64,000 nt of DNA, from positions 7,374-71,373 of the forward strand of contig CAYVNP010000013.1 in assembly GCA_964452905.1 (NCBI GenBank), written 5' to 3'. The number at the start of each line of letters is the position of its first letter. Position 1 is the first letter of the stretch. Source of the DNA: an uncultured Bacteroidales bacterium (GTDB lineage Bacteria; Bacteroidota; Bacteroidia; Bacteroidales; CAYVNP01). The translations under genes and the position numbers were made by a program. Under the pieces are notes generated by a model that was not told the origin of the DNA, ran no database searches, and saw nothing but the letters and a program-made list of their open reading frames with translations. Of the stretch, positions 18,352 through 39,573 are shown in pieces.

Positions 18352-18378
18352 ATTTTTTATTTTTAAATTAAACAATCG

Positions 18379-20014: not shown

Positions 20015-20054
20015 TCTTTTTTTAATAATTTAAATTGAAAATTACCCAACCTAT

Positions 20055-20735: not shown

Positions 20736-20886
20736 CTTTTAAAAATTTAGTTTAACCTTAATTTTTATATTCAAAAAATCCATATTAGAACAGAAATAAA
20801 CTGTTAAATAAAATAATTTATACAAACCTAATACCACATGATAATAATAATCATGTTGAGATATAAAGGCAGATTAAAAAGTATTA

Positions 20887-21189
20887 TCAGGAAACTTTAG
20901 GTGGTTGCCAAATGGATTGAGAGTGCTTAAGAAATACAAAGTTGTTATTTGAGAAAGGAATTAAACATATAATTTCGTCAATCAAATTAGGTTCAAAATG
21001 TTTGATAATTTGATCATCTTCAAAAGAAGCAATATCTCCGATAAAAATATTATCAAAATCAACCTTATCCACAAAATGTGTAATGTTATTTGAACTTAAA
21101 TTGTTATTTGAATATTCGACCAACCCAAAACAACAAAGTATTGCTATTGAAAAGAAAATATTTAAAATTTTATTTTTTCGAATTTTCAT
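20887..21189 (-). CDS. Small secreted or membrane-anchored hypothetical protein ending in WQPPKVS
   Basis: 100 aa with an N-terminal hydrophobic segment. C-terminal HSQSIWQPPKVS resembles FSQYHPEICPPPPKV of ORF 17133..17519. Confidence 0.5.
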   Translation of the reverse strand: MKIRKNKILNIFFSIAILCCFGLVEYSNNNLSSNNITHFVDKVDFDNIFIGDIASFEDDQIIKHFEPNLIDEIICLIPFSNNNFVFLKHSQSIWQPPKVS

Positions 21190-21426
21190 ATTTTTGTAAA
21201 AGTAGCAATATTAACATCAACTTTAAGAAATTGGATAATAAATAGTTTGATCATTAACATTTATTAATTAAATACAATACTAAACTAATTAATCAAAGAA
21301 CGTGCCAAAACTAATTATTAGCAATATATTGTTAGGACAATAAAATGATTTTATTTCCTTTATAATATTACTAATGTCTTGTGAATTAAAAAGCGAAATA
21401 AATAATTCCTAATCCTGAAAATACTG

Positions 21427-24297
21427 TCAGTGGCGAAGAATTTTTTGCTTTGTATTGGCAGGTTGTTTGAACTTTTTCATATTATAGGTCAATGTAAATA
21501 AATAATACCGGTTAAGCACTTTGGTCTGATTGTCTTCAATGTATGTATCCGTTACGTTTCTTGTAATACTTTTATTTTGATTAAGTATATCAAACACACT
21601 GAACTTTAGCTCGAGAGATTGATTTTTAAGGAATTTATATCCAAGTGATCCATTCCAGAGTAAAAAATTCTGATTGAAATTTTGGGAGAGTCCAGCATAA
21701 TATGTTTGATTCACATTTGTATTTAAAACAAATCCTTTCCAGAAAATCCAGTTTAATTTTAATGTAGCAATGTGATAAAAATAATTCGTATTGGACTGTG
21801 TTTGTATAGAATTATCTACCATATTATAATTTGCCGTATAGGATAAATTAAAATCAATTTTCTCGTTGATATTGCTGCTGAGTCCTAATCCGCCTAACAT
21901 CGTGTAATTATTGGTCAGATTAATAATATGATTGATCAATGATGGTGTTTTGTTGTATGTAAATCCTCCATTCATATTCAGATTACATTTGATCAAACCA
22001 AATGGAATAGCATATGTAATTATACCTCTTGTATTCCAGCAATCATTAAGATTGACAGGTTGAGTTAATTGACTTCCTTTTTTTAAAACAATATTTTTAT
22101 TCCATATTGTATCTGCAGGAGCAATAAAAGTAGAATTACCAATGTAATTTTGAGCATAGTTGCCATAGAGAAAAATAAATAATCCGGTTGCTTTTTCACT
22201 TTTAGTTCTGCCATATCGAACGATGAGGGTATGTTCGTAATCCTGCTTTAGGTCTGGATTACCGGTGCTTAATAATAAAGGATTGGTATTGTTCACTACA
22301 TTTTGCAATTGAGATATTGAAGGAATATTCGTGGATGTACGATACATGAATCGTATGTTTGTTCCTTTGTCAAATTTATAGTTATACATTGCATTTGGCA
22401 ACAAATTATGATAGGATTCCCTGACATGAAAAGCAACTGGAAAAATTTCATTTCCCGAAAGGGTTGCATACTGATAATTGACCCCAATCATAAAATTATT
22501 TTTTTTACCATTTCTCCTATAACTAATACCTCCTCGGTTTGAGAAGTATGTATTTTGATATTTATTACTCAAAGCAGTATCCATGAGTAAATAATCTTGT
22601 TTAATCATATCAAAATTTTCTGTTTCCTTATCCGTTTTATTCTTTATAAAAGATGGATTATAATTGAATTGTATTTGATTGTTGCTGTCTATGGGTTCAG
22701 TGTAATTGATTCCTGAAGCAATCGTATACCCGTTATTATTCTGGGTGGAATGCTGGTCAATCAGGGTGGTATCATTTATATATTGATTTAATGAATATAA
22801 ACTGCCTTTCCCGTTTTTATCATTTGCATTTGTTTCAATATTCATTGAGAAAGTTCGACCGCGTTTTTTAAATTTATGTTGATACAAAATATTGTTTGAA
22901 AAAGTATATCCGAAATTATTAGACTTATTACTGTTTTCTGTTTTGTTTTCTAAACTATTTTCAGGAAAAATATTACTACCCCATACTGTTGCACTTGCAT
23001 TTTTTTGTTGAAAATTCAATTTAGGAGTGAATGTCAATTTATTCAATGAATCCAGTTCATATTCAAATCTAAAATTAATACGATGATTATAATTTCTACT
23101 ATCAGATTGATTATATTCATTGTAGATCAGTCCTTGATTTTTTAAAGTAAAATAGTTTCGTGTCAAAGATGTATAATTTGTATTTTCGGTATTATTAAAA
23201 AAATAACTACCTGTAACTTTCATTTTCTTTCCCCATTTATCGCTATAGTTTAATCCGATGGAATTGGTTGTGGAAACGCCTGCCTGTGTACCAATTAAAA
23301 AATTATTTGCCTGATTACTTCCAAATCCGCCACCGCCTCCACCACCGGAAAATCCGCCTCGTCCAGCAACTCCGCCTCCTCTTCCCTGTCCTCCCGCACT
23401 ATTTCCTGTTACACCAAGTAAATCCTGTGAACTGAAATTCTGTTGATTGATATTATTGCTAAGCCCGATTACTGAAATTCTTCGTTCCCCTTTAAATAAA
23501 TTAACATTCCCGCCTGCAATATAATGATCATCGGCTCCATACCCCGCATACACTTTCCCAAACTGCCCGTTATTCTTTCCGTTCTTTGTAATTATATTCA
23601 TTGTTTTAGTGGTTTGCCCATCGTCAAACCCGGTAAACTGGGACTGATCGCTCAGTTTATCAAATATTTGAATTTTATCAACCACTTCAGCAGGAAGATT
23701 TTTTAATGCCATGCTTGGGTCATCTCCAAAAAACGGTTTGCCATCCACTAAAACCTGTTTCACTTGTTCCCCATGTGCTTTCAAATTACCGCTGTTATCC
23801 GTTGTAATACCAGGCATTTTTGCAACTAAATCTTCAGTTGTTGCATCGGGATTCGTTTTATATGCATTTGAATTATATTGAATGGTGTCTCCTTTTTGTT
23901 CAACACGGATTTGCTCTCTTGCTATTGTTAGCTCCTTTAAGTTTGTGACTGAACGTTTCAACTTTATCAATCCGAAATTCTTTTCAAGTTTAACGTCATT
24001 CAGAATAAAGATTTCTGATTTTAAATCATCATAACCCACAAAAGAAATTTTAATAAAATAATTTCCAAAAGGAACTGAAGAAATCGTAAAACGACCTGTT
24101 TTATCAGTTATTACTCCTTTTACAATTGAAAAATCTTTTGCTTGGATGAGCGCTACTGAAGCGAATGTCATTGGTTCAGATGATTGAGCATCCTTAACAA
24201 AACCGAAAACTTTGCCAGAATTATTTTGTGCGGCAACTTTGAAAAATAATAAAAAAATAAATAAAATACAAGTACTTATTTTTCTTAATATAGTCAT
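21427..24297 (-). CDS. Outer-membrane beta-barrel protein with an N-terminal carboxypeptidase-regulatory-like domain (TonB-dependent-receptor-like)
   Basis: Signal peptide, then GKVFGFVKDAQSSEPMTFASVAL...GRFTISSVPFGNYFIKISFVGY (CarbopepD_reg-like), a plug-like segment, a Gly/Arg-rich linker, then about 600 aa of alternating beta-strand pattern. Confidence 0.8.
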   Translation of the reverse strand: MTILRKISTCILFIFLLFFKVAAQNNSGKVFGFVKDAQSSEPMTFASVALIQAKDFSIVKGVITDKTGRFTISSVPFGNYFIKISFVGYDDLKSEIFILNDVKLEKNFGLIKLKRSVTNLKELTIAREQIRVEQKGDTIQYNSNAYKTNPDATTEDLVAKMPGITTDNSGNLKAHGEQVKQVLVDGKPFFGDDPSMALKNLPAEVVDKIQIFDKLSDQSQFTGFDDGQTTKTMNIITKNGKNNGQFGKVYAGYGADDHYIAGGNVNLFKGERRISVIGLSNNINQQNFSSQDLLGVTGNSAGGQGRGGGVAGRGGFSGGGGGGGFGSNQANNFLIGTQAGVSTTNSIGLNYSDKWGKKMKVTGSYFFNNTENTNYTSLTRNYFTLKNQGLIYNEYNQSDSRNYNHRINFRFEYELDSLNKLTFTPKLNFQQKNASATVWGSNIFPENSLENKTENSNKSNNFGYTFSNNILYQHKFKKRGRTFSMNIETNANDKNGKGSLYSLNQYINDTTLIDQHSTQNNNGYTIASGINYTEPIDSNNQIQFNYNPSFIKNKTDKETENFDMIKQDYLLMDTALSNKYQNTYFSNRGGISYRRNGKKNNFMIGVNYQYATLSGNEIFPVAFHVRESYHNLLPNAMYNYKFDKGTNIRFMYRTSTNIPSISQLQNVVNNTNPLLLSTGNPDLKQDYEHTLIVRYGRTKSEKATGLFIFLYGNYAQNYIGNSTFIAPADTIWNKNIVLKKGSQLTQPVNLNDCWNTRGIITYAIPFGLIKCNLNMNGGFTYNKTPSLINHIINLTNNYTMLGGLGLSSNINEKIDFNLSYTANYNMVDNSIQTQSNTNYFYHIATLKLNWIFWKGFVLNTNVNQTYYAGLSQNFNQNFLLWNGSLGYKFLKNQSLELKFSVFDILNQNKSITRNVTDTYIEDNQTKVLNRYYLFTLTYNMKKFKQPANTKQKILRH

Positions 24298-24464
24298 AAA
24301 AATAAATTACTTAAAAGCGCATACGTTAATCTTTGACTAAACATATCCTAAAAAGTTTAATAGGAAACAAATAATTATTCAATTCTGTATTCTTTTGTAA
24401 AAAAGATTCAGAATAAATCGTCACAATTTCAACATGAAAAACCGAAATATTAGCAGGAACAAAA

Positions 24465-25217
24465 TTAATTTAATACACGATGTGACATCAGATCGTTAAA
24501 TTCATCTTTCTTCCTTCTCGAAATAATTACTTTAGAACCATCCTTCAGTTCAATATAATTATCATTGGTTATAAGTTTTTTTACAAAATTTAAATTAATA
24601 AGATATGATTTATGACATCGGAAGAAATCTTTATCGGTAAGCAATAATTCAAATTCCATGATATTTTTACTTACCACCATATTCTGTTTGTTGGTCATAT
24701 ATAGATGGGAATAACTTCCATCTGCAAGAATATAAATAATTTCATCAATATTGATATATTCCACTCCTTCTGAAGTAGATACTGAAATATTTTTTGATTG
24801 AGTTAACTTAATATTTTCAAGCAGTTTTTCTATGTTCGGATTAATTCCTTTTATGGTTGTTCTTTTATCTTCAACACGTTTAACCGCAATCATCAGTTCA
24901 TCAATATTAACAGGTTTGATGATATAATCTATTGCATTGTGTTTAATAGCTTTTAAAGCATAATGATCATGAGCTGTGATAAAAATTACTTCAAAGAATC
25001 TGTTCGGAATACATTCTAATAGATCAAATCCTGTTCCTTGTGGCATTTCAATATCAAGAAAAAGCAGATCCGGCTGATGCTCCAGAATAAGTTTGATCCC
25101 CTCTTTAAAAGAATTTGTTTTGGCAGTAACGTCTACTTTCGGGCAATACCTTTTTAATATCAGGTCGAGAGTATTAATGGCATCTATTTCGTCGTCAATG
25201 ATAATTGCTTTGATCAT
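24465..25217 (-). CDS. LytR/AlgR-family response regulator (REC + LytTR DNA-binding domain)
   Basis: MIKAIIIDDE...DLLFLDIEMP receiver and a C-terminal LytTR pattern (FFRCHKSYLINLNFV). Starts 5 nt after the kinase stop. Confidence 0.92.
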   Translation of the reverse strand: MIKAIIIDDEIDAINTLDLILKRYCPKVDVTAKTNSFKEGIKLILEHQPDLLFLDIEMPQGTGFDLLECIPNRFFEVIFITAHDHYALKAIKHNAIDYIIKPVNIDELMIAVKRVEDKRTTIKGINPNIEKLLENIKLTQSKNISVSTSEGVEYINIDEIIYILADGSYSHLYMTNKQNMVVSKNIMEFELLLTDKDFFRCHKSYLINLNFVKKLITNDNYIELKDGSKVIISRRKKDEFNDLMSHRVLN

Positions 25218-25221
25218 AATT

Positions 25222-27435
25222 CTATAAATTTATTATTGTTGGAATATTAAGTTCTACGAGTGTTCCAAGAGGATTATTGTATTCGTCTTTTAAATCAGTA
25301 TACGTAAATTTTAAATCTTTTTTATACAATTTATTTATTAGTTCCAATCGTGATTTAGTAATATTTATTCCCATCGAACGATGTTGTTGCTTTTTCTGTT
25401 TTTTAAGTTCCATCGCCTTTTCCCTACCAACACCGTTATCTTGTATCCGACAGCTGATTTTATCCTCAAGGTATCTGAGTTCAATCATTATTTTTCCTGA
25501 TTCCTCTTTCGGCATTAATCCATGCCAAATAGCATTTTCAATAAACGGTTGAATAATTAAAGAAGGTATCTTGTATAAGTTTGTATCTATTTTCTCATCA
25601 ATGATTATTTCATACTCAAACCGATTTTTAAACCGTAAAGTTTCCAATTCTAAATAAAGATTTAAACTTTCAATTTCATCTTTGATAGGAATGACAAGAT
25701 TTTGAGAATTATTCAACGTATTTCGCATTAAACTGGCAAACTTAGTAAGATAGCGGTTTGATGAAAGTATATCGTTTTGTAAAATATAATACTGAATGGA
25801 ATTCATTGCATTGAAAATAAAATGAGGATTCATCTGCCGACTTAGAGCTGAAATATTCGCTTTATTCAATTCCGATTGAAGTTGATTCCGTTTACGTATT
25901 TCCTGATTTCTGTAAAATAGATAAAAAGATAAAAACAGGACGAAAACAATAATAATTCCTATAGTAAAAAAATATCGTTGACGATTGATACTATTCTGCC
26001 GTTTATTCAATTCAAGTTCATCTAATATCTTCACTTTGTTTAAGGATTCAATCATGCGTTGTTTCTTTTCCGTTTGATATTTAGTCAGGATTTCATTGAT
26101 TTGCTTGTTGTTTTCCAGTTTAAATAATGAATCATAGATTGATTTAAAGAGTTTATAATTTGTAAAAGCTTCTTTATAAGAGCCCTGATTAGCATAAACT
26201 TCCGAGAGGAGCTCATAATTATTTTTGATCTGATCGACAAAATTTATTTTTAAAGCCAGGTTCAAACTTTTTTGAAGATAATGCACTGACTGATTATATT
26301 GGCGGAGATAATTATAGTTTGAACCTATCGCACTAAGGTTAAGGCATATCCCCGATTGATTATTGATCTGTTCATTGATCTTCAGTGCCTTCAGATAATA
26401 GTCAATGGAAAGAGAATTATTTTTTTTTGTTTCATAGGTATGACCTAAATTATGCAGAGAGGTAGCAATCCCTGGCAGATCATTGATTTTTTCACGGATA
26501 GAAAGAGCTTCATTAAAAACTCCAAGAGCTTTTTGCAATTCATTTTTTGCCAGATAAATATTGCCGATATTTGTAAGGGTATTGGCAATACCTGATTTAT
26601 TATTTATTTTTTTTTCTACATATAGGGACTTATGAAAATAATCCAGTGCGATATCATGTTGCAGCAAATTTTCATTGATTATACCTAAGTTCGTATAACA
26701 ACTGGCAATTCCTTTTTGAAAATTGATTTTTTCCGAGAGTTTCAATGCATCCTGATAACATAAAATAGCTTTGGTATATTTCCCCCAGTAAAGATAAATA
26801 TTACCGATCTGGTTTAAAGATATGGCCTGCCCTTTGGTGTCATTAGCCGTTTTTTTAATTTCAAGGGCTTCCTGATAATATTGTAACGATTTTTCATAAT
26901 TGCTGATGGCAGAATAAGCCAGTCCAATATTATTCAGTGTACGTGAAATATTTTTGGGGTTCCTGAATTTTTTAAAAATAAACAAGGCCTGTAAGTGAGA
27001 TTCGATTGCTTTTTCATATTCCCCCTTTTGATAATAAATCAACCCAAGATTTTCAAATGATAATCCTATCCCTAAAGTATCATTAATCCTTTTTCTGATA
27101 TTTAAAGATTTAGTAAAATTGAAAAGTGCTGAATCAATATTATTTTTCAGATAATATGATTTACCAAGATTATCGTAAGCCGCAGCCAACTCTTTTGAAA
27201 AGGATGTATGTTTTAAAAGGGTCAATACGGTTAAAGCATATTTTTTTGAAGAATCAGGTTGAATATTTAAATATTCTTCAGATATGTTATTAATTATAGT
27301 AATATATCTGACTCCTTTTGATTTTGATAATAAAACAGAAAGACTATCAATCTTGGGTTGCGAAAAAAGAACCCCGTTTATTAGATAAAACAAGATAAAC
27401 AATAAAAAATATCTGGGCATAAATGAATAATTCAT
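25222..27435 (-). CDS. TPR-repeat sensor histidine kinase (LytS-type His_kinase domain)
   Basis: Signal peptide, about 10 extracytoplasmic TPR units (repeated A...Y..AL.I...), a single TM (FFTIGIIIVFVLFLSFYLFY), then QMNPHFIFNAMNSIQ and the ATPase region IQPFIENAIWHG. Confidence 0.9.
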   Translation of the reverse strand: MNYSFMPRYFLLFILFYLINGVLFSQPKIDSLSVLLSKSKGVRYITIINNISEEYLNIQPDSSKKYALTVLTLLKHTSFSKELAAAYDNLGKSYYLKNNIDSALFNFTKSLNIRKRINDTLGIGLSFENLGLIYYQKGEYEKAIESHLQALFIFKKFRNPKNISRTLNNIGLAYSAISNYEKSLQYYQEALEIKKTANDTKGQAISLNQIGNIYLYWGKYTKAILCYQDALKLSEKINFQKGIASCYTNLGIINENLLQHDIALDYFHKSLYVEKKINNKSGIANTLTNIGNIYLAKNELQKALGVFNEALSIREKINDLPGIATSLHNLGHTYETKKNNSLSIDYYLKALKINEQINNQSGICLNLSAIGSNYNYLRQYNQSVHYLQKSLNLALKINFVDQIKNNYELLSEVYANQGSYKEAFTNYKLFKSIYDSLFKLENNKQINEILTKYQTEKKQRMIESLNKVKILDELELNKRQNSINRQRYFFTIGIIIVFVLFLSFYLFYRNQEIRKRNQLQSELNKANISALSRQMNPHFIFNAMNSIQYYILQNDILSSNRYLTKFASLMRNTLNNSQNLVIPIKDEIESLNLYLELETLRFKNRFEYEIIIDEKIDTNLYKIPSLIIQPFIENAIWHGLMPKEESGKIMIELRYLEDKISCRIQDNGVGREKAMELKKQKKQQHRSMGINITKSRLELINKLYKKDLKFTYTDLKDEYNNPLGTLVELNIPTIINL

Positions 27436-27544
27436 TTTTGTAAAGATATGAATTATAAATAAATAGCAAAACGTTTAATAATTGATTTTTTTCAAATTTG
27501 AAAAAAAAATTTATCTTTAAGGGACAATTTTGCCAATTTATATA

Positions 27545-27566
27545 TATATTTGTATAAATATATTTG
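27545..27566 (+). promoter_or_regulatory. Candidate Bacteroidota -7 promoter boxes (two TATATTTG copies 14 bp apart) upstream of the paralog array
   Basis: TATATTTG at 27545-27552 and 27559-27566 fits the TAnnTTTG consensus. They lie 38-52 nt upstream of the GTG at 27604. Confidence 0.35.
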
Positions 27567-27603
27567 AAAGAACCTATTCGTTTTTAATATTAAATATAGA
27601 AAA

Positions 27604-29805
27604 GTGAAGATTAAATTTATTTTTTTAAATATTTTGTTTTTTTCAATATGTGGTTTTTTATTCGCACAAAAATCAAACTGTCCTGCAATTTATCAGAAGC
27701 AGGATATTTGTGTGGTTACCGTTGATCAGATAATAAATAAAGCGGTTGTAGTGTGGGAAAAAACACGTGGACTTGGTATTAAATCTTTTTTAATCTATAA
27801 ATTGAGACATAATGGCTTGGATCAATGGGATGTAGCAGATACAATTCCTTTTAACAACCAGAGTATTTGGACGGATAAAAATTCCAATCCTGATTTATAT
27901 CCCGAATCATATAAAATTGCAGTGATGGATTCTTGTGGAAATATTTCCAACCTTAGCAGAGTTCACAGTTCCATCTATTTTCGTGCAGTTCGACAACCGC
28001 AAGGAATGCCTTATACTGAATTTCATTGGACAAATCCAATAGAGAACCCATACGATGATTTTTATAAATATGAACTATATGGTGGAGATACTATTTCAAA
28101 TTTAAAATTATTCAATTCTGGAAATTTAATAAGTGGTGGAGGTGATACAACATCACTTTCGGCTGACTGGGATCCTTCCTCACAATATAGATATTATTAT
28201 ATTATTTATATAAAAAGAGATTCATGTAATCCTGAAATTATTAAAAAAGGTGTGCCGGTATATGGCAAATCCATTTCAAACCTGGAAGATCTTGGAGCCC
28301 CTGAATGCAAAAATCCACCTTATATTTGGCAACAACAAATCTGTCTGACTACTGTTGATCATAAAACAAATAAGGTAGTGGTGGTTTGGGAAAAGATATT
28401 AAATGATGCGATTAAGTCTTTTTTAATATATAAATTAAGACACACAGGAACCAATCAATGGGATATTGTTGCTAACATCCCCTATAGGAGTGAAACTGTT
28501 TGGACAGATCCATATTCCAATCCCGATTTATATCCCGAGTCCTACAAAATAGCAACTATAGATACATGCGGTAATATTTCGAATCTAAGTATGGAAAACA
28601 AGTCAATCTATTTAACTGCAAAAACCATTCTTAATAATGATTCGGTTAATCAACTTAGTTGGAATTTTCCCAATTCATCAAGAGATGATGGTTTTTACTT
28701 GCCTCCCGATATTTATGGTGGAAGCACTAAAGAAACTATGAGATTATTTAGACAGGATGAGATTTCTATTATTTACGACTCTACATATAAAGTTCCTAAA
28801 TACCGTTACTATTATATTGCTTATAATGTAAAGGATACTTGTTTTCCATCCATATTTAAAAAAGGTGTTCCTGTTTATTCGCGTTCTGTTTCCAATTTAG
28901 AAGATTTAGGAGCATCATTTTGCTTCAGTATTCCATATGCCGATCAAAAAATCTGCATGGTAACAATAGATACTGTTTTGAATAAGAATGTTGTAGTATG
29001 GGATAAGCTCAAAAATAAAGGAATAGAATTCTTTTATATTTATAAATACAAATTGAATGGAGATTCAATCAAAGATGTAATAGTTATTTCTTCACATATG
29101 GCAGGTGTCTGGTTAGATTCCAGTTCAACACCGGATAAAGAGTCTGCAGATTATCGGATAGGGATTATTGATACGTGCGGTAATGTATCCAAGCCCAGTC
29201 CATATTCCTTCAGATCCGTTCATTTGTCAGTTGCAAAAGATAATAATGAAATTAACTTTCAATGGAATCACCCGATTGATGATCCCACATCAGAATTTAC
29301 CCGTTGTTTAATCTATGGAGGAAATGATTCATTGTATTTAACTCTACTATCAACGATAACTGATTTTAGTACAAAAAAAACATTTTTAACTTCTGATCCT
29401 TCTTCACATTATCTGTATTATCGAATTATTTATGAAAAAATTTCTATCTGTAATCCAACATTGAAAAAAGGGAATAGTAATTATTATTATCAAATCAAAT
29501 CCAATTTATTCAATACTGGAATGCTCGTAGGCATAGGAAAATATTCACTTCTGAATGAATCCATACTACTTTATCCAAACCCTGTTCGGGATTTGTTATC
29601 TGTGATGATTAAGAATCAATCAGAGAATACCGTAGAAATCGAATTAAAAGATGTACTTGGCAATACATTGTTAAAACAGGAATGGAATATTACATCTAAC
29701 AAACAAACCTTCAATTTAAATCTGTCCGGTTTATCCAGAGGTTTTTATTTTATAAAACTGAATAATGGTAATACGTCCATAATTCAAAAGATTATATTAA
29801 ATTAA
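27604..29805 (+). CDS. T9SS type-A-sorted modular surface protein, 3 modules (paralog 1)
   Basis: GTG start, signal peptide, three modules of about 205 aa starting at Cys26, Cys235 and Cys440. Each module reads C..(I)YQ.Q.IC.VTVD...NK.VVVWEK...GI.SF.IYK...W.D..SNPD...YKIA..D.CGN.S. C-terminal LYPNPVRDLLSV...GFYFIKL..IQKIILN is a Por-secretion-tail-type CTD. Confidence 0.85.
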   Translation: MKIKFIFLNILFFSICGFLFAQKSNCPAIYQKQDICVVTVDQIINKAVVVWEKTRGLGIKSFLIYKLRHNGLDQWDVADTIPFNNQSIWTDKNSNPDLYPESYKIAVMDSCGNISNLSRVHSSIYFRAVRQPQGMPYTEFHWTNPIENPYDDFYKYELYGGDTISNLKLFNSGNLISGGGDTTSLSADWDPSSQYRYYYIIYIKRDSCNPEIIKKGVPVYGKSISNLEDLGAPECKNPPYIWQQQICLTTVDHKTNKVVVVWEKILNDAIKSFLIYKLRHTGTNQWDIVANIPYRSETVWTDPYSNPDLYPESYKIATIDTCGNISNLSMENKSIYLTAKTILNNDSVNQLSWNFPNSSRDDGFYLPPDIYGGSTKETMRLFRQDEISIIYDSTYKVPKYRYYYIAYNVKDTCFPSIFKKGVPVYSRSVSNLEDLGASFCFSIPYADQKICMVTIDTVLNKNVVVWDKLKNKGIEFFYIYKYKLNGDSIKDVIVISSHMAGVWLDSSSTPDKESADYRIGIIDTCGNVSKPSPYSFRSVHLSVAKDNNEINFQWNHPIDDPTSEFTRCLIYGGNDSLYLTLLSTITDFSTKKTFLTSDPSSHYLYYRIIYEKISICNPTLKKGNSNYYYQIKSNLFNTGMLVGIGKYSLLNESILLYPNPVRDLLSVMIKNQSENTVEIELKDVLGNTLLKQEWNITSNKQTFNLNLSGLSRGFYFIKLNNGNTSIIQKIILN

Positions 29806-32039
29806 AAACTTTTTGTTTTGATATTTTTAATTATGAAAAAAGAAATCGTTTATATTTTATTTTTGATTTTTCTGTTAAATAATGTTTTTTCACAAAAATC
29901 AGATTGTCCGACTATTTATCAAGGTCAAGATATTTGTATGGTTACAGTTGATCAAACTATTAATAAAGCCGTAGTTGTTTGGGAAAGAAAAAAAGAACTT
30001 GGAATCAAATCATTTATTATTTATAAAGTTATGCAATCATCAGGTGATTGGATTGTAGCAGATACTATACCATTTGAAAAAGAAAGTATCTGGACTGACT
30101 ATCAATCAAATCCTGACACTACATTTGAAATGTATAAAATTGCAGTTATTGATACTTGCGGTAATGTTTCAACTTTAAGTAGAATGCATTCATCTGTTTA
30201 TCTGGCATGTTATAGAAATATTAGTTTAACAAATTTAACTTGGACACCTCCAACTTTAACACCTACAACAGATTATATCAATTGGGAAATTTATGGAGGA
30301 AATACATTATCAAAAATGAAACTGATTGAAACTGGACCAATTATTAATGATGATTTTATAATTAATAAAGAATATTTAAGTTCTGATTCCCTTTCAAAAT
30401 TCCGTTATTATTCTATAGCTTATGTTAAAAAGGATACATGTTTTCCATCCATATTTAAAAAAGGTGTTCCTGTTTATTCGCGTTCTGTTTCCAATTTAGA
30501 AGATTTAGGAGCATCATTTTGCTTCAGTATTCCATATGCCGATCAAAAAATCTGCATGGTAACAATAGATACTGTTTTGAATAAGAATGTTGTAGTATGG
30601 GATAAGCTCAAAAATAAAGGAATAGAATTCTTTTATATTTATAAATACAAATTGAATGGAGATTCAATCAAAGATGTAATAGTTATTTCTTCACATATGG
30701 CAGGTGTCTGGTTAGATTCCAGTTCAACACCGGATAAAGAGTCTGCAGATTATCGGATAGGGATTATTGATACGTGCGGTAATGTATCCAAGCCCAGTCC
30801 ATATTCCTTCAGATCCGTTCATTTGTCAGTTGCAAAAGATAATAATGAAATTAACTTTCAATGGAATCACCCGATTGATGATCCCACATCAGAATTTACC
30901 CGTTGTTTAATCTATGGAGGAAATGATTCATTGTATTTAACTCTACTATCAACGATAACTGATTTTAGTACAAAAAAAACATTTTTAACTTCTGATCCTT
31001 CTTCACATTATCTGTATTATCGAATTATTTATGAAAAAATTTCTATCTGTAATCCAACATTGAAAAAAGGGAATAGTAATTATTATTATCAAATCAAATC
31101 CAATTTATTCAATACTGGAATGCTCGTAGGCATAGGAAAATATTCACTTCTGAATGAATCCATACTACTTTATCCAAACCCTGTTCGGGATTTGTTATCT
31201 GTGATGATTAAGAATCAATCAGAGAATACCGTAGAAATCGAATTAAAAGATGTACTTGGCAATACATTGTTAAAACAGGAATGGAATATTACATCTAACA
31301 AACAAACCTTCAATTTAAATCTGTCCGGTTTATCCAGAGGTTTTTATTTTATAAAACTGAATAATGGTAATACGTCCATAATTCAAAAGATTATATTAAA
31401 TTAAAAACTTTTTGTTTTGATATTTTTAATTATGAAAAAAGAAATCGTTTATATTTTATTTTTGATTTTTCTGTTAAATAATGTTTTTTCACAAAAATCA
31501 GATTGTCCGACTATTTATCAAGGTCAAGATATTTGTATGGTTACAGTTGATCAAACTATTAATAAAGCCGTAGTTGTTTGGGAAAGAAAAAAAGAACTTG
31601 GAATCAAATCATTTATTATTTATAAAGTTATGCAATCATCAGGTGATTGGATTGTAGCAGATACTATACCATTTGAAAAAGAAAGTATCTGGACTGACTA
31701 TCAATCAAATCCTGACACTACATTTGAAATGTATAAAATTGCAGTTATTGATACTTGCGGTAATGTTTCAACTTTAAGTAGAATGCATTCATCTGTTTAT
31801 CTGGCATGTTATAGAAATATTAGTTTAACAAATTTAACTTGGACACCTCCAACTTTAACACCTACAACAGATTATATCAATTGGGAAATTTATGGAGGAA
31901 ATACATTATCAAAAATGAAACTGATTGAAACTGGACCAATTATTAATGATGATTTTATAATTAATAAAGAATATTTAAGTTCTGATTCCCTTTCAAAATT
32001 CCGTTATTATTCTATAGCTTATGTTAAAAAGGATACATG
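28840..32039 (+). repeat. Perfect tandem direct duplication, 2 x 1,599 bp
   Basis: Copy 1 (28840-30438) matches copy 2 (30439-32037) at every line I compared (offset 1599). Mismatches occur only at 28839/30438 and 30441/32040. The microhomology AAGGATAC(T/A)TG is present at 28831, 30430 and 32029. Confidence 0.9.
29833..31404 (+). CDS. T9SS type-A-sorted modular surface protein, 2-module chimera (paralog 2)
   Basis: ATG at 29833 (track opens at the TTG at 29818). The first about 202 aa are identical to paralog 3 and the last about 321 aa identical to paralog 1. The junction falls at the DTC codons (30430-30440). Confidence 0.8.
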   Translation: MKKEIVYILFLIFLLNNVFSQKSDCPTIYQGQDICMVTVDQTINKAVVVWERKKELGIKSFIIYKVMQSSGDWIVADTIPFEKESIWTDYQSNPDTTFEMYKIAVIDTCGNVSTLSRMHSSVYLACYRNISLTNLTWTPPTLTPTTDYINWEIYGGNTLSKMKLIETGPIINDDFIINKEYLSSDSLSKFRYYSIAYVKKDTCFPSIFKKGVPVYSRSVSNLEDLGASFCFSIPYADQKICMVTIDTVLNKNVVVWDKLKNKGIEFFYIYKYKLNGDSIKDVIVISSHMAGVWLDSSSTPDKESADYRIGIIDTCGNVSKPSPYSFRSVHLSVAKDNNEINFQWNHPIDDPTSEFTRCLIYGGNDSLYLTLLSTITDFSTKKTFLTSDPSSHYLYYRIIYEKISICNPTLKKGNSNYYYQIKSNLFNTGMLVGIGKYSLLNESILLYPNPVRDLLSVMIKNQSENTVEIELKDVLGNTLLKQEWNITSNKQTFNLNLSGLSRGFYFIKLNNGNTSIIQKIILN

Positions 32040-33627
32040 CTATCCTACCCTAATTAGAAAAGGGATACCTATTTACGCTCGTTCTACTTCTAATTTAGCT
32101 GATTTAGGATTTCCCCCTAAATGTGTCAGCCAACCTTATCAGGGACAAGATATTTGTCTTGTTACTATAGATCAAACTATAAATAAAGCTGTTGTTGTCT
32201 GGGAACGAAAAAAAGATCTCGGTATCAAATCGTATATCATTTATAAGTTAAGCCATACCATTGCCAATAAATGGGATGTGGCTGCTGATATTCCTTTTGA
32301 AAACGAAAGTGTCTGGATTGACCAGAATTCAAATCCTGATTTATATCCCGAATCCTATAAAATCGCTGTTATGGATACATGCGGAAACATTTCAGATCCT
32401 AGCAGAACTCATCGTTCAATCTTTTTAGAAGTTATAAGAAATTATACTGGACTACCTTATACAAATTTTAATTGGAATCGTCCTACAATAACACCTGTAA
32501 ATGATTATTATAAACTTGAAATTTATGGTGGTGATACACTATCCAAATTGAAAATTATCAGTTCTATCACAATTCAAGTTGACGACACTACTACATTTAT
32601 TGCAAACTGGGATCCTGCTTCACAATTCCGGTATTATTATCTAGTTTATTTCCGTTCCGATACCTGTTATCCTTCAATCATTAAGAAAGCACCTCCATTT
32701 GCTTATTCTATTTCCAATCTCCCTGATTTAGGATTTCCACCCTGTCAAAGTAAAACATATCAAAATTTTAAAATATGTTTAGTTACAGTAGATTCGACAA
32801 CACATAAAACGACATTAGTTTGGGAACGTCCAAAAAATTTAGGAATAGAATCATTTCTGATCTTTAAGAAAAATACGAATGTATCACCTCCTGTTTGGGA
32901 TGTACTCGATACTATTCCGTTTACCCAAAATAGCATTTGGACTGATCCTACTTCAAATCCTGATAAGAAAACCGAATTCTATAAATTTGGCATTTTAGAT
33001 ACATGTGGAAATTTAACATATTCTAATGTTACACAAAATTCCATCTATTTATCTCTTACGAAGAATGCTGATAATATTAAACTTTCATGGAATAATCCTT
33101 CAAAAGACCCAACATTGGATTTTAATTATTTTAAAATATTTGGCGGGAATAATCCTTCCGGTTTAAATCTAATTTTTACAGGTTCTAATTTTGACACTTC
33201 AAAAACATTTTTTCAGTCTGATCCTTCATCACAATATAAATATTATATTGTGATTTTTTACAAAATTGACACCTGTCAATCAGCAATTAATAAGAAAGGT
33301 GATTTGATTAATCTTTCTCAAATAACTTCAAATCTTGCCTACTTTGATATTCCTATAGGGATTACATCAACTAATGAATTTTCATTTCACGTGTCTCCTA
33401 ATCCTGCTCACGACGAATTAACAATTTATTTTACTAATTCCGAAAAGAAAAAAACAATTATAGAAATAACTGATTTGTTGGGAAATATTATTACCCAACA
33501 AGAACTTGTAATACCTACTATTAATCATTCAATTCATATTAACTTATCATCCTTAACAAAAGGGATCTATTTTATTAGAGTTAAAAGTGATAATTATTTA
33601 AAGTTACAAAAATTGATTATCAATTAA
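31432..33627 (+). CDS. T9SS type-A-sorted modular surface protein, 3 modules (paralog 3)
   Basis: ATG at 31432, signal peptide and three modules with the same motif set. C-terminal VSPNPAHDELTIYF...GIYFIRV...LQKLIIN is a type-A CTD. Confidence 0.85.
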   Translation: MKKEIVYILFLIFLLNNVFSQKSDCPTIYQGQDICMVTVDQTINKAVVVWERKKELGIKSFIIYKVMQSSGDWIVADTIPFEKESIWTDYQSNPDTTFEMYKIAVIDTCGNVSTLSRMHSSVYLACYRNISLTNLTWTPPTLTPTTDYINWEIYGGNTLSKMKLIETGPIINDDFIINKEYLSSDSLSKFRYYSIAYVKKDTCYPTLIRKGIPIYARSTSNLADLGFPPKCVSQPYQGQDICLVTIDQTINKAVVVWERKKDLGIKSYIIYKLSHTIANKWDVAADIPFENESVWIDQNSNPDLYPESYKIAVMDTCGNISDPSRTHRSIFLEVIRNYTGLPYTNFNWNRPTITPVNDYYKLEIYGGDTLSKLKIISSITIQVDDTTTFIANWDPASQFRYYYLVYFRSDTCYPSIIKKAPPFAYSISNLPDLGFPPCQSKTYQNFKICLVTVDSTTHKTTLVWERPKNLGIESFLIFKKNTNVSPPVWDVLDTIPFTQNSIWTDPTSNPDKKTEFYKFGILDTCGNLTYSNVTQNSIYLSLTKNADNIKLSWNNPSKDPTLDFNYFKIFGGNNPSGLNLIFTGSNFDTSKTFFQSDPSSQYKYYIVIFYKIDTCQSAINKKGDLINLSQITSNLAYFDIPIGITSTNEFSFHVSPNPAHDELTIYFTNSEKKKTIIEITDLLGNIITQQELVIPTINHSIHINLSSLTKGIYFIRVKSDNYLKLQKLIIN

Positions 33628-33650
33628 TTTTAAAATTTCATACTGTTATT

Positions 33651-33685
33651 AACCTCATAGTTTGACTATGAGGTTTTTTATTTTA
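33651..33685 (+). terminator. Rho-independent terminator after the paralog array
   Basis: Perfect 10-bp stem AACCTCATAG / CTATGAGGTT with loop TTTGA, followed by TTTTTTATTTT. Confidence 0.8.
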
Positions 33686-33819
33686 TACCGTTCGTCAATC
33701 ATTTTATACCATTCATAAAATAATTAATACACTTTGTATGTTAAATGGTATTATTCATAGTTCAACATGTTAATTTTATAGAAAATTTAACGATTAATAA
33801 CGATTAAAATTTAAAAACG

Positions 33820-34173
33820 ATGAGAACACTAATTTTAATTTTAGCATTATTAATAATTACAAAAATGTCATTTACTCAAAATTTAAAACTTTCAAGACGA
33901 ATAAAATTTATTGCAATAAATACTCATTCTATTAATACAATATCATCGAATATGATTTATAGTGTAACTAATAAACAGAATGTACCAAAAAAACATAAAT
34001 TTTCAAATTCAAATATCAGTAGAATTTGTTTTTTTGATTCAGTTGGATCAATCAAATTTATTTATCATCCATCTGTAATTGATACTTCTTACAGTAATAC
34101 ACCAATTGAATGTATGCATTACCCGAAACATCTTTATTATTATTTATTTTATGTAAAAAGAGCTATTTGTTAA
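33820..34173 (+). pseudogene. Short ORF resembling a decayed module of the upstream paralog family
   Basis: 117 aa with a signal-like N-terminus. ISRICFFDSVGSI is comparable to YKIAVMDSCGNIS, and the C-terminal HLYYYLFYVKRAIC to YRYYYIIYIKRDSC. There is no CTD. Confidence 0.35.
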
Positions 34174-34373
34174 TTACTTTTTTCCCTCATATTTACGACC
34201 TAAAAGACATAACCCAAATTCTCTCTTTTTCAAAAACATCTTTAACATCCTATCATTAATTTATCAACGAATTTTAAGTCTATTTACTCACATAAAAATT
34301 CCAAAAAATACATATTTATGTCATTGATGATTTAAAAAAATTATCTTTACCGCCCAAACAAATATTTTAATTC

Positions 34374-35438
34374 ATGAACCGCCTCTATCTGATTGTTATT
34401 TTCATTCCATTTATTTTTTCATGTAAAAAAGATAAACCTCAGATTATTCAACATAAATATATTGACACAACCAATAAAGATTCAGTGACTTTAGATCCGA
34501 ATTTACTACATTATATTAATCCGGTATTAAATACCGATTTCCCCGATCCTGCCATACTTCTGGCACAAGATGGATACTATTATTCGTATGCTACCAATGG
34601 GAAATACGATGGTGTTTTTTGTACTATTCAAGTGGCTCGTTCAGCCGACATGGTCAATTGGGAGCATCTGGGTGATGCTATGCCAGTTCAACCCGACTGG
34701 GCAAGTGGTGATTTCTGGGCGCCCCATGTGATCTATGATGATTCATTAAAAAAATATTTCATGTATTTTTCCGGTGAGAATAATGGGAAATGCCTGGGTG
34801 TTGCAACTTCCAATTCACCCGAAGGACCCTTTGTTGATAAAGGGACTCCGCTTCTGTGTGGTGATGGTTTTGTGAATATTGATCCTATGGCTTTTGATGA
34901 TCCCCAAACCGGAAAGCATTATCTGTTCTGGGGTTCAGGATTCCAAGCCATCAAAGTACAAGAACTGACAAGGGATAGAATGCATTTTGTTTCGGGCAGT
35001 CAACCGAAAGGACTTATATATCCAAATGGTGGAGAACCCTATAAAATTTTAGTTGAAGGTAACTGGGTAATCTATCGGAATGGAAAATATTATATGTTTT
35101 ATTCAGGTGATAATTGTTGCGGTACAAAAGCACATTACGCTGTCATGGTTGCCAGAGCCGACAGCCCAACCGGACCTTTTACCGAATTTAAAAGCCCAAC
35201 TGAAAATTCAAGTGTTATCCTACGTGACAGTTATAACTGGCGTGGTCCGGGACATAATTCAATCATTACAGATAAAGCCGGCAACGACTGGATCGTTTAT
35301 CATGCTATGCGTCCTGAAGATATGGCACGCACGTTCCGTGTGATGCTCATTGACAGAATATTATGGGTTGAAGGCTGGCCAAGGGTGTACAATGATCAGC
35401 CATCAAATGTTTTATGCAATGCCCCGGTAGTAAACTGA
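34374..35438 (+). CDS. Glycoside hydrolase family 43 lipoprotein (arabinanase/xylosidase-like)
   Basis: Lipobox IFSCKK. DFPDPAILLAQDGYYYSYATN and FWAPHVIYD, followed by VEGNWVIYRNGKYYMFYSG, are the five-bladed-propeller GH43 motifs. Confidence 0.88.
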   Translation: MNRLYLIVIFIPFIFSCKKDKPQIIQHKYIDTTNKDSVTLDPNLLHYINPVLNTDFPDPAILLAQDGYYYSYATNGKYDGVFCTIQVARSADMVNWEHLGDAMPVQPDWASGDFWAPHVIYDDSLKKYFMYFSGENNGKCLGVATSNSPEGPFVDKGTPLLCGDGFVNIDPMAFDDPQTGKHYLFWGSGFQAIKVQELTRDRMHFVSGSQPKGLIYPNGGEPYKILVEGNWVIYRNGKYYMFYSGDNCCGTKAHYAVMVARADSPTGPFTEFKSPTENSSVILRDSYNWRGPGHNSIITDKAGNDWIVYHAMRPEDMARTFRVMLIDRILWVEGWPRVYNDQPSNVLCNAPVVN

Positions 35439-35439
35439 T

Positions 35440-36435
35440 TTAAAATAATAATGATAGCGTCTTAGCCAGATCAAGCATTTCAGGTGCAATATCCTGTTCT
35501 TGTTTGGTTGCTTTTTCAAAAGGAGTGTATGCAACTTCATTATTTATGATCCCAACCATCTCTCCTCTGCGTCCGTTCAACAAAGCTTTTACGGCATTAA
35601 AACCGAGTTCGCTCGCCAGCACACGGTCTCTGCATGATGGACTTCCTCCGCGCTGAAGATGACCGAGAATAGTCACACGGGTATCAAAATATTCAAATTT
35701 CTGTTTGACTTTATTGGCTATCTCAATAGCGCCGCCTGCTTCATCGCCTTCGGAAACAATGACGATGGCTGAACGACTGTTTCTTTTTTTCAATCCATCG
35801 GCAAGACCGTCAATCACTTCTTCAATGGTCGTCTTGGTTTCGGGGATCAGTATTCCTTCGGCGCCTGTGGCAATACCGCTGTGGAGGGCAATGTAACCTG
35901 CATCACGTCCCATCACTTCAATAAAAAATATTCTATTGTGCGAGGCAGCCGTATCTCTGATCTTATCAACCGCTTCAATAACAGTATTCAATGCCGTGTC
36001 AAAGCCAATGGTCAGGTCTGTACCGCAAAGATCATTGTCTATTGTACCCGGTAATCCCATGATTGGCACATCGTATTTACTTCCAAACTCAAGAGCACCG
36101 CGGAATGTACCATCACCGCCGATCACCACCAGTCCTTCAATGCCTTCACGCATCAGGTTTTCATAGCCGGTCTTAAGTCCTTCATCAGTTCTGAAACGTT
36201 TGCTGCGTGCAGTTTTCAGGATAGTACCACCTTTACTGATGATTCCTGATACCGAATGGGTATCCATTTCCACGAACTGATCATTCATCATTCCTTCATA
36301 CCCGTTGTAAATACCGGATACTTCCAATCCAAGTTGTATTGCGGTGCGCACAACCGCTCTGATAGCAGCATTCATGCCAGGGGAGTCACCGCCTGAAGTC
36401 AGGACGCCAATTTTATGTATATTATTCTTTGCCAT
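35440..36435 (-). CDS. pfkA: ATP-dependent 6-phosphofructokinase
   Basis: IGVLTSGGDSPGMNAAIRAVVR, VVIGGDGTF, GLPGTIDNDL, MGRDAGYIAL. Confidence 0.95.
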   Translation of the reverse strand: MAKNNIHKIGVLTSGGDSPGMNAAIRAVVRTAIQLGLEVSGIYNGYEGMMNDQFVEMDTHSVSGIISKGGTILKTARSKRFRTDEGLKTGYENLMREGIEGLVVIGGDGTFRGALEFGSKYDVPIMGLPGTIDNDLCGTDLTIGFDTALNTVIEAVDKIRDTAASHNRIFFIEVMGRDAGYIALHSGIATGAEGILIPETKTTIEEVIDGLADGLKKRNSRSAIVIVSEGDEAGGAIEIANKVKQKFEYFDTRVTILGHLQRGGSPSCRDRVLASELGFNAVKALLNGRRGEMVGIINNEVAYTPFEKATKQEQDIAPEMLDLAKTLSLLF

Positions 36436-36537
36436 AGGTTGTTGAATTTTGTTTCTTCAAAAATACATTAAATTTGAAATAATCGACCATCCCTTTTCTA
36501 TATATTACCGAATTATGTTTCATTACTTATCAAATTT

Positions 36538-37737
36538 TTATGCTTGATATTTTTCTTTCTTGCTTCCTTTATAAAGTTCAAACTGAACAAATTTACATTC
36601 AAGGGGCCCATTAAACAGTTTGATTTTCTTTGAAGGATGCAAGCCGATAAATTTCAATGCCTGAATGTCGGAGCTGATAAGCCATGCGGTGTGACCGAGA
36701 TAATTCTGTTTCAACGTGTCGCCGATGGATTTATAAAAAGCAATGATATCGTCCTGTTCCAATCGCTCGCCATACGGAGGATTCGTAATAATAATACCGC
36801 TTTCTGAATCAGCTTTGGTATTTTCAAATGCGTTAACAGATAATGTAATATCTTTATGAAATCCGGCTGAATGTATATTTTCTTTTGCAATATCAATCAT
36901 CATTCCCGAAATATCCGAACCAATGATTTCATGGTCAAATTCAGTTTGTTCAGAATAGGAATCTTTTACTATTTTATTCCAGAGTTCGGGTTCATAATCT
37001 TTCCATTTCATAAACCCATAGTCATTCCGGTAATTTCCGGGGGCAATGTTATTGGCGATCAGGGCTGCTTCAATGAGTAATGTACCAGAACCGCACATCG
37101 GATCAATGAAGTTACAATCTTTTTTCCAACCGCTCAGCAATATTAATCCGGCTGCTAACACTTCGTTCATGGGCGCACCGCCTGTCATCCGGCGATAACC
37201 GCGTTTAAACAAAGGAATACTGGAACTGTCAAGCGAAACAGTGCAATGATTTGATTCAATGTGCAGATTAATCCTCAGTGATGGATTTTCAGTATCAACG
37301 GATGGTCTGGCTCCATGCCGGTTGCGAAACTGATCCACAATAGCATCTTTGGCTTTCTGGGCAACAAATTTGGAGTGATTGAGTTCCGAATTATTGACTA
37401 CTGCATCAATTGCCAGCGTGTCCTTCACATCAATATATTCCTGCCAGTTAATAGATATAATTTTATCATACAAGTCCTGTTCATTGGTCACATCAAATTC
37501 ATGAACAGGTAACAATATCCTTAAAGCTGTTCGGCACCAGTGGTTAGCAGCATACATCAGATTTTTATTCCCTTTAAAACCAACAGCACGTTTTAAAAGT
37601 TGAATATCTTCAGCACCTAACGCTTTTAATTCCTCTGCAAGTATTTCTTCCAGACCAAACAAGGTGGTTGCTACCAATGAACTTTTTTCTAATTTATCCG
37701 TCAAAATATAATTATTTTTGAATATGTAAAAAGTCAA
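36538..37737 (-). CDS. THUMP-domain class I SAM-dependent RNA methyltransferase (RlmL/UPF0020-like)
   Basis: LVATTLFGLEEILAEEL (THUMP N-terminus), DPMCGSGTLLIEAA (SAM motif I) and ITNPPYGERL (motif IV). There is no in-frame ATG before the conserved core. The start is the TTG at 37737 or the next TTG, so the exact 5' end is uncertain. Confidence 0.85.
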   Translation of the reverse strand: MTFYIFKNNYILTDKLEKSSLVATTLFGLEEILAEELKALGAEDIQLLKRAVGFKGNKNLMYAANHWCRTALRILLPVHEFDVTNEQDLYDKIISINWQEYIDVKDTLAIDAVVNNSELNHSKFVAQKAKDAIVDQFRNRHGARPSVDTENPSLRINLHIESNHCTVSLDSSSIPLFKRGYRRMTGGAPMNEVLAAGLILLSGWKKDCNFIDPMCGSGTLLIEAALIANNIAPGNYRNDYGFMKWKDYEPELWNKIVKDSYSEQTEFDHEIIGSDISGMMIDIAKENIHSAGFHKDITLSVNAFENTKADSESGIIITNPPYGERLEQDDIIAFYKSIGDTLKQNYLGHTAWLISSDIQALKFIGLHPSKKIKLFNGPLECKFVQFELYKGSKKEKYQA

Positions 37738-37738
37738 C

Positions 37739-39484
37739 CTATGATTGAATTTTTATTCCCAATTCTTTCAGTTGCTCATCAGAAATTTTCGAAGGAGAGT
37801 CAATCATCACATCTCTGCCTGAATTATTTTTGGGAAAAGCAATGAAATCGCGGATTGTTTCAGAACCGCCGAACAACGAACAAAGGCGGTCGAAGCCGAA
37901 GGCGAGACCGCCGTGAGGAGGAGCGCCATATTCAAAAGCATTCATCAAAAAACCAAACTGATACTGGGCTTCTTCATCCGTAAAACCAAGCACTTCAAAC
38001 ATTCTTTTCTGCAATGTACGATCATGGATCCTGATGGAACCACCACCAACTTCAACACCGTTGATAACCATGTCATACGCATTGGCTCTGACCTTAGCGG
38101 GTTCCGTATCTAGTAAAGAAATATCTTCGGGCTTTGGAGATGTGAACGGATGATGCTTGGCATAAAAACGTTTTGTGTCTTCATCCCATTCAAGCAGTGG
38201 AAAATCCAATACCCACAATGGTTTGAAATTTTCCGGATCACGTAAACCAAGTCGATTGCCCATTTCGAGACGTAGTTCACACAATTGTTTTTGCACTTTT
38301 TCCCGAGCACCTGCCATGACCAACATCAGTTCGCCGGGTTTGGCATTGAACTGCTCACAGATTTGTTTCAAATCATCAACAGAATAAAATTTGTCAACTG
38401 AAGATTTTAAACTCCCGTCTTTACCAAATCTAAGATAAATTAGACCTGATGCACCTATCTGCGGCTTCTTCACGAAATCAGTCAGTTCATCCAGTTGTTT
38501 ACGGGTATATTCACTGCACCCTTCAACACAAATACCAACAACAAGTTCAGCTTGATCAAACACATTGAACCCTTTTCCTTTTACCACATCGTTCAGTTCA
38601 ACAAATTTCATTTCAAAACGCAAATCAGGTTTGTCGCAACCATAGTATTTCATGGCTGTTTCATAGGTCATACGAGGTAATTTTTCTAATTTGATGCCTT
38701 TGACTTTTTCAAATAAATGGATGATCAACCCTTCAAAATTATTCAGAATATCTTCCTGCGTAACATATGACATTTCGCAGTCTATTTGTGTGAACTCGGG
38801 CTGACGGTCGGCACGCAGGTCTTCATCGCGGAAACAGCGTACGATCTGAAAATATTTATCAATACCGGCAACCATCAAAAGTTGTTTAAATGTCTGTGGT
38901 GACTGAGGTAAAGCATAAAATTCACCCTGATTCATCCGTGATGGCACCACAAAGTCGCGTGCACCTTCGGGAGTGGATTTAATTAGTACGGGTGTTTCTA
39001 TTTCGAGAAATCCTTTTGAACTGAGAAAAGCGCGTGTTTCCTGAGCCATCCAATGACGTAGCTCAAGATTTTTTTTAACGACATTTCTCCGTAGATCAAG
39101 GTAACGGTATTTCATGCGGAGCTCATCGCCCCCGTCAGTGTTGTCTTCAATAGTGAATGGAGGTGTTTTGGATGTATTCAGAATTGTAAGTTGTTCAACA
39201 ATAATTTCAATCTCACCGGTAGGTAGCTTTAAATTCTTATTGCTACGCTCCATCACTTCACCAATGACCTGAATAACAAACTCACGTCCAAGTGTTCTTG
39301 CCTGTTGGCAGAGAGCAGCATTTGATTCCATATTGAAAACGAGTTGTGTGATGCCATAGCGGTCGCGAAGATCAAGGAAGGTCATACCGCCCATGTCGCG
39401 TGTGCGTTGCACCCAGCCGCAAAGCGTAACTTGTTCATTTATATTTTTCAGCGTGAGTTCACCGCAATTATTGGTTCTGTACAT
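37739..39484 (-). CDS. aspS: Aspartate--tRNA ligase
   Basis: [11 protein letters not shown]..., class II motifs [18 protein letters not shown] and GGGSIRIH, C-terminal GLAFGFDRL. Confidence 0.97.
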
Positions 39485-39573
39485 ATAAAAAAGTTTTATG
39501 CGAAATTACAAAAAAATAAATTTATCAGATGAAATGAATGACTGGATTAATCAATACAAAGGTGAATATGACT

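Follow-up and report, generated by a model that had tools for sequence, protein, structure and literature searches.

What do three adjacent, related genes of an uncultured Bacteroidales bacterium encode, and how did they come to stand side by side? The genes, here called genes 1, 2 and 3, lie on the forward strand of a 64,000-nt stretch of contig CAYVNP010000013.1 (assembly GCA_964452905.1, positions 7,374 to 71,373), which we refer to as the window. An earlier reading of this DNA, the original prediction, had singled them out as an array of paralogs sorted through a type IX secretion system (T9SS), built from a repeated, cysteine-containing module of 205 residues. We consider it probable that the genes encode T9SS cargo proteins made of modules of two fibronectin type III (FN3) domains each, that these modules originate from a family of stalk domains, and that the array includes a recent chimera; a specific ligand or role can be named with much lower confidence.

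The assignment to the T9SS comes from the C-terminal domain (CTD). Por_Secre_tail (PF18962) matches all three proteins with 56-58 bits (cut-off 27) and TIGR04183 with 45-47 bits (cut-off 23), the CTD ends one or two residues before the stop, and the PNP, GxYF and K-hydrophobic motifs are legible in it. By this C-terminal sorting domain, the proteins are predicted members of the type A CTD cargo. Hydrophobic N-terminal leaders were recognized by eye, reading MKIKFIFLNILFFSICGFLFA and MKKEIVYILFLIFLLNNVFS up to the presumed mature start QKS (...LFA before QKS in the former, ...VFS in the latter); public gene calls begin genes 2 and 3 at an ATG five codons downstream of the open reading frame (ORF) start, giving 523 and 731 aa. 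Between leader and CTD, the proteins consist of consecutive modules of ~205 aa, the last of which directly precedes the CTD. Coordinates, CTD matches and self-comparison agree with the predicted copy numbers of three, two and three.

The resulting eight module copies are spaced 612-633 nt apart by DNA and protein self-comparison. All of them match positions 2-202 of a module profile with E values of 1e-64 to 1e-73, and a scan of the 64-kb window with this profile finds the module in these three genes only. The alignment of the window copies reproduces the motifs listed in the original prediction and its four conserved cysteines, which occupy invariant columns in all eight copies; it likewise bears out that the first half of the module is conserved and the second divergent, as pairwise identity between distinct modules is 38-65% in the former and 25-54% in the latter.

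What fold does the module adopt? An AlphaFold2 model of the second module of gene 3, computed from a 19-sequence alignment (A1) that includes 13 homologues whose matches to a profile built from the window modules alone have E values of 1e-20 to 1e-37, has a pLDDT of 90.5 and a pTM of 0.87 and comprises 13 strands, arranged as two consecutive beta-sandwiches of 6-7 and 7 strands. In a Foldseek search of the PDB, every top match is a tandem FN3 pair (neuroglian, NCAM, LAR, gp130, integrin beta4), with probability 1.00 for both halves and E values down to 8e-7 over 205-224 aligned columns. Across A1, the match between homologues and window copies is full-length (~200 aa), covers both FN3 halves and keeps the I-C, D, W, C and S-N positions invariant. 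A profile search against PDB sequences gave marginal FN3 matches for both halves (titin, the Fn3-like 3mpc, gp130; E 0.007-0.1), and in a Pfam/NCBIfam scan of the three proteins the CTD was the sole match at E<=1, with PF00041 (fn3) not matched. Thus, the model predicts that each module is a pair of FN3-type beta-sandwiches, substantiating the suggestion of two FN3/Ig-like subdomains. The Foldseek alignments reach TM-scores of at most 0.36 at an rmsd of 11-17 A, so the mutual orientation of the two domains is unlike that in the top-ranked solved pairs. While the eukaryotic FN3 pairs (neuroglian 1cfb, NCAM 2vkx, LAR 6tpv, gp130 3l5j) thus align to both module halves, they differ in domain orientation, share 7-15% sequence identity with the module and lack its IC...CxP cysteines, which are specific to the module family. 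A two-module model of gene 2 has a mean pLDDT of 82.7 and a pTM of 0.50; the fall in pTM from one to two modules fits rigid modules with flexible joints.

What pairing do the cysteines suggest? Among 76 modules from outside the window, the cysteine of the IC motif and that of the CxP motif are both present in 59, both absent in 14 and discordant in 3, which favours a disulfide between them that would tie the start of the first FN3 domain to the F-G region of the second. Both the high pTM and the unusual way in which the two domains are oriented would agree with such a bond. The DTCGN cysteine varies independently of this pair in the same modules, and in 9 of the 14 modules that have no DTCGN cysteine, the IC and CxP cysteines are the only ones; the fourth cysteine, which precedes IC by about 10 residues, is for the most part confined to the window copies. 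The FN3 pair therefore probably holds one or two disulfides, judging from these patterns.

How did the array arise? Positions 28840-30440 are identical to 30439-32039, with zero mismatches over 1,601 positions at an offset of 1,599 (100% identity), a tandem repeat that Tandem Repeats Finder did not report with its longest period set to 500. The duplicated unit takes in the last ~25 codons of the second module of gene 1 together with its third module and CTD, then the 12-nt spacer and, from the next gene, the signal peptide along with most of the first module. Gene 2 accordingly consists of residues 1-207 of gene 3 fused to residues 413-733 of gene 1, its DNA being identical to gene 3 through 30438 and to gene 1 from 30439 onward. 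At the junction, the left side matches gene 3 (AAAGGATACATGCTATCC) and the right side gene 1 (AAAGGATACTTGTTTTCC); the parental sites lie at 28830-28847 and 32028-32045, and the junction sequence is found in neither. The crossover falls within 9+2 nt common to both parents and preserves the reading frame, and in the model the chimeric domain of gene 2 shows as a normal module. The locus is thus two older genes and one new in-frame chimera, and since the duplication makes two of the eight copies dependent, it holds six distinct modules. The probable mechanism is an unequal crossing-over between the end of the second module of gene 1 and the end of the first module of gene 3 at the common AAAGGATAC-N-TG (K-D-T-C) codons, which would have duplicated 1,599 bp in frame and yielded a two-module chimera. 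The event appears very recent, as it carries zero substitutions while in every other module pair the synonymous sites are saturated, with pS values of 0.51-0.74. It would offer a clean example of array growth: a gene for a repeat protein made by one in-frame unequal crossover.

This event is the latest duplication in the growth of the array. A neighbour-joining tree that includes 13 outgroup modules unites the six modules of the window in a single clade (100% bootstrap), within which the first module of gene 1 pairs with the second of gene 3 (94%), followed by the first of gene 3 (94.5%) and the second of gene 1 (93.5%), the two CTD-proximal modules being the most divergent. The mosaic relationship noted originally holds in pairwise identity as well: the first module of gene 1 is 58% identical to the second of gene 3 and 53% to its positional counterpart. 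Between the two CTDs, identity is 36%. A tree so independent of position suggests that the array grew from one module by repeated duplication irrespective of position; one ancestral module would have been amplified within and between two genes in this lineage. Diversification by module shuffling, as originally proposed, has its direct evidence in gene 2, with the non-positional tree alongside.

Does this shuffling serve surface variation? The original prediction saw here the behaviour of variable adhesins or decoy surface antigens; on such a reading, diversifying selection would act on the second FN3 domain and strains would differ by module shuffling. The greater divergence of the second half, the one shuffling event caught in the act and the position-independent tree are in keeping with this. 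The dN/dS ratio is 0.10-0.21 in the first FN3 domain and 0.22-0.56 in the second, about 2-2.5 times higher but below 1 throughout; as synonymous sites are saturated (pS 0.5-0.74), only the ratio between the half-modules is informative, which limits the selection test. The second domain thus seems less constrained, with no sign of positive selection within that limit. Hallmarks of phase or antigenic variation did not turn up either: we found no inverton-like inverted repeats flanking the promoter, no recombinase in the Pfam annotation of the neighbouring genes, and no silent cassettes or extra module copies in the window. An invertible promoter was considered and rejected, the candidate repeats being just weak AT-rich palindromes. 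The searched collections yielded no strain-level relatives in which variability could show, and on balance we regard antigenic variation as rather unlikely.

Table 1. Features of the array and its surroundings, in window coordinates (m, module).
Feature	Position	Strand	Basis and remarks
PorP/SprF gene	242-1276	-	directly adjoins 1,359-aa CHU_C cargo gene (joint span 242-5407)
Outer-membrane protein (CarboxypepD_reg, OMP_b-brl_3)	21427-24297	-	956 aa, Gly-rich insert; downstream of LytTR regulator gene
LytTR response regulator	24465-25217	-	Pfam
TPR/His_kinase sensor (LytS-type)	25222-27435	-	Pfam; divergent from array
Two TAnnTTTG motifs	27545 and 27559 (27545-27566)	+	pattern match; candidate Bacteroidota -7 promoter elements
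Gene 1	27604-29805	+	ORF, 733 aa; putative signal peptide aa 1-21 (LFA/QKS, by eye)
Gene 1 modules and type A CTD	m1 27673-28302; m2 28303-28917; m3 28918-29547; CTD 29548-29802	+	alignment, profile matches
Perfect tandem duplication, period 1,599 nt	28840-32039 (first copy to 30438, second copy 30439-32037, plus 2 nt)	+	offset comparison
Gene 2 (chimera)	29818-31404	+	ORF, 528 aa; probable ATG start 29833
Gene 2 modules and CTD	m1 29899-30516; m2 30517-31146; CTD 31147-31401	+	
Recombination junction AAAGGATACA/TGTTTTCC	30429-30446	+	K-D-T-C codons; three-way nucleotide comparison
Gene 3	31417-33627	+	ORF, 736 aa; probable ATG start 31432
Gene 3 modules and CTD	m1 31498-32118; m2 32119-32739; m3 32740-33372; CTD 33373-33624	+	alignment, profile matches
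Terminator-like site	33651-33685 (hairpin 33651-33675)	+	11-bp stem, then T-run; 24 nt past gene 3 stop; the only one on the + strand
117-aa ORF	33820-34173	+	hydrophobic N-terminus, no family match; between array terminator and GH43 gene

Where else does the module occur? The original prediction could place it in no recognisable family. This stands insofar as no named family covers it: the Pfam scan leaves it uncovered in the homologues too, they go by no database name other than 'T9SS type A sorting domain-containing protein' or 'hypothetical', and our literature searches found no description of it. It is not an orphan, however, but belongs to a very large unnamed family. A word-indexed protein search returned 15 non-self proteins at 23-37% identity. 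An exhaustive search with the A1 profile of the module, which brought in further independent homologues, matched 23,679 cluster representatives at E<=1e-3, 4,073 of them at E<=1e-30, counts that also take in giant multi-FN3 proteins without a full module. Among the best 150 of this search, 58 proteins from outside the window contain at least one full-length module. In 38 of them the last module ends 81-121 aa before the C-terminus, abutting the CTD, and a further 11 leave space for about one extra domain in between; in some homologues the module is distant from the C-terminus. The N-terminal partner domains are diverse, including PKD, SprB repeats, CBM9, Big_2, FG-GAP, cadherin and BNR. On this sequence evidence, the module is a member of a large unnamed Bacteroidota family, usually in single copy between functional N-terminal domains and the CTD, a position that suggests a CTD-proximal stalk.

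The copy number sets the window apart. In the top-scoring list of the profile search, 41 proteins have a single module and 20 two or more; tandem two-module proteins exist elsewhere (e.g., P0063, P0073 and P0089), but proteins of three abutting modules alone occur, among the best 150, in this window only. A scan of JGI metagenomes with a 7-sequence alignment identified 79 loci, in which each of the 89 module-bearing ORFs has exactly one full module, compared with the two or three of the window genes. Adjacent module genes are not confined to the window: in 9 of the 79 loci, two or three neighbouring genes each have a full module, and four consecutive module+CTD genes occur in one 4.4-Mb genome. 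A minimal protein of ~300 aa, consisting of signal peptide, module and CTD, is encoded 5-18 nt downstream of a ~1,200-aa PKD/SprB/module/CTD gene in three unrelated assemblies (L082, 6374-20915; L083 and L084, 6388-10918). An MscS channel gene adjoins this pair in L082 and L084, and L082 further contains four module-bearing cargo genes in a row and, near this module cluster, an OMP_b-brl_3 gene similar to the one in the window. The two-module homologue P0063 lies on a 2.5-kb contig (L081, 124-2351), 11 nt downstream of a CTD-ending gene, a spacing like that of the window array.

The organism itself is of a Bacteroidota lineage with no close relative in the collections searched. The best match of the neighbouring PFK gene among 185,579 species genomes is 63% identical, and the 80 loci (1.39 Mb) reached via this neighbour contain no module; an exact-sequence look-up for close relatives found no contig, and a JGI metagenome scan with gene 1 no match.

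How do the proteins compare with known cargo? With T9SS type A cargo bearing Ig- or FN3-like domains they share the Por_Secre_tail CTD and beta-sandwiches directly upstream of it; the putative signal peptide, assigned by eye, and the T9SS-related genes on the same fragment would go with such cargo. Unlike such cargo, they have no catalytic or otherwise functional N-terminal domain, the mature protein being two or three copies of one di-FN3 module. The giant Bacteroidota proteins with many FN3 domains and a type B sorting domain (CHU_C) resemble them in that the profile matches 10-39 repeated stretches per protein over both FN3 halves (one such protein that we scanned gave weak Pfam fn3 matches and CHU_C), but most of their repeats lack the IC/CxP pair, they show no single full-length module match, and their sorting domain is of the other type. 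In our view the locus encodes FN3-repeat T9SS cargo of an uncommon kind, composed of the module alone, and represents no new system or mechanism, FN3-repeat surface proteins and tandem duplications both being ordinary. Its wider interest would be that a ~200-aa di-FN3 unit of thousands of T9SS cargo clusters, to which no Pfam or NCBIfam model corresponds, becomes definable as a family.

The route of these proteins can be outlined from what is known of T9SS cargo. They would first be exported by Sec, then fold and form disulfides in the periplasm; the T9SS would recognise the CTD, cleavage would occur in the linker ahead of it, and after passage through the translocon and removal of the CTD the chains would be released or anchored to the surface via a glycan (glycolipid) link. 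In Prevotella, cargo is cut in the flexible linker, and the C-terminus so created is glycosylated (PMC11969387). The 'long CTD' that the same paper describes for Prevotella was considered as a counterpart of the module and rejected, as it is an ordinary 7-strand CTD. Their domain content makes it most likely that the products lack enzymatic activity and form rod-like chains of 4-6 FN3 domains, which would most plausibly serve as surface spacer, coat or adhesin.

Could the module instead assist secretion itself? Its regular place beside the sorting domain would, if it holds, raise the question of what part the CTD-proximal domain plays in secretion, cleavage and surface display. The module might then be not a binding unit but a T9SS accessory, contributing to secretion competence, to processing by PorU/PorV or to the spacing of attachment, and module-only proteins would amount to 'empty stalks' with a part in building or modulating the surface layer. 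It abuts the CTD in most homologues whatever their N-terminal domains (PKD, SprB, CBM9, Big_2, FG-GAP), and the minimal proteins recur beside large cargo genes. Yet many T9SS cargo proteins do without the module, some homologues bear it far from the C-terminus, and CTDs alone are sufficient to direct the secretion of reporters. We therefore find an accessory function unlikely. Its furthest extension is similarly doubtful: that the IC...CxP di-FN3 unit is a dedicated, previously unrecognised T9SS accessory, a disulfide-stapled stalk, conserved across thousands of cargo proteins, that would help the CTD with processing or with attachment to the surface, and that module-only genes form a surface-layer or spacer system of their own, which grows and shrinks through unequal crossing-over in frame.

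Several points weigh against our preferred description of di-FN3 cargo with a recent chimera, in addition to the mixed make-up of the profile counts. FN3 is a generic fold that says little about a ligand, and type A cargo may be released instead of anchored. In canonical FN3 topology the IC and CxP sites are far apart, so that a bond between them requires a compact inter-domain geometry. The duplication, finally, is known from one assembly and one contig, with a single member there, and a perfect 1.6-kb tandem repeat is difficult for short reads; gene 2 could then be an assembly artefact and the true locus consist of two genes. Assemblers, however, as a rule collapse repeats of this kind and do not expand them. 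The sequence at the junction, GATACA followed by TGTTTTCC, is new, and its parental sites have only 9+2 nt in common, too short for joining in a k-mer graph, so that reads across it must exist. As the chimera moreover keeps the reading frame and its model shows a normal module, we hold an artefact to be distinctly unlikely.

How is the array expressed? The two spacers between the genes are both 12 nt long and read AAACTTTTTGTT each time; together with the single terminator (Table 1), this makes one transcription unit likely, and on this layout the three genes are likely one operon. The intergenic region upstream, divergent and AT-rich, spans 168 nt. A sigma-70 scan was uninformative (51 sites found against 50 expected), and neither the Rfam nor the tRNA scan gave a match in the region. 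A regulatory link of the divergent sensor/LytTR pair to the array is possible; as a general rule such regulation was rejected, since module genes elsewhere have other neighbours. On the far side, a gene for a GH43 glycoside hydrolase follows the array after 750 nt on the same strand, and glycoside hydrolases often carry FN3-like domains, but a role of the array proteins as carbohydrate-binding accessories of this enzyme is most improbable, given the terminator and the separate small ORF in between, the absence of SusC/SusD family matches among the scanned neighbouring genes, and module genes elsewhere that do not lie beside GH43.

The window is chromosomal, with dnaE, aspS, lpxK and pfkA. Besides the array, its T9SS context consists of the PorP/SprF gene, the adjoining CHU_C cargo gene and another CTD protein; the core T9SS genes (sprA/sov, porK-N, porU, porV) were not found in the 64 kb. 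Type B cargo is usually paired with its own PorP/SprF. The 1,359-aa cargo protein next to PorP/SprF comprises DUF7948, PKD, Ig_7, an SprB repeat and a type B sorting domain of the CHU_C family. At 43023-47797 on the forward strand, a 1,152-aa protein whose sole Pfam match is a C-terminal Peptidase_S74, the intramolecular chaperone of endosialidases as found in phage tail spikes, is followed 30 nt on by a 428-aa type A CTD protein. The G+C content is 28-33% over 16001-34000 (28-30% in the array itself), 38-40% over 34001-40000, and 31-42% in most other parts of the window.

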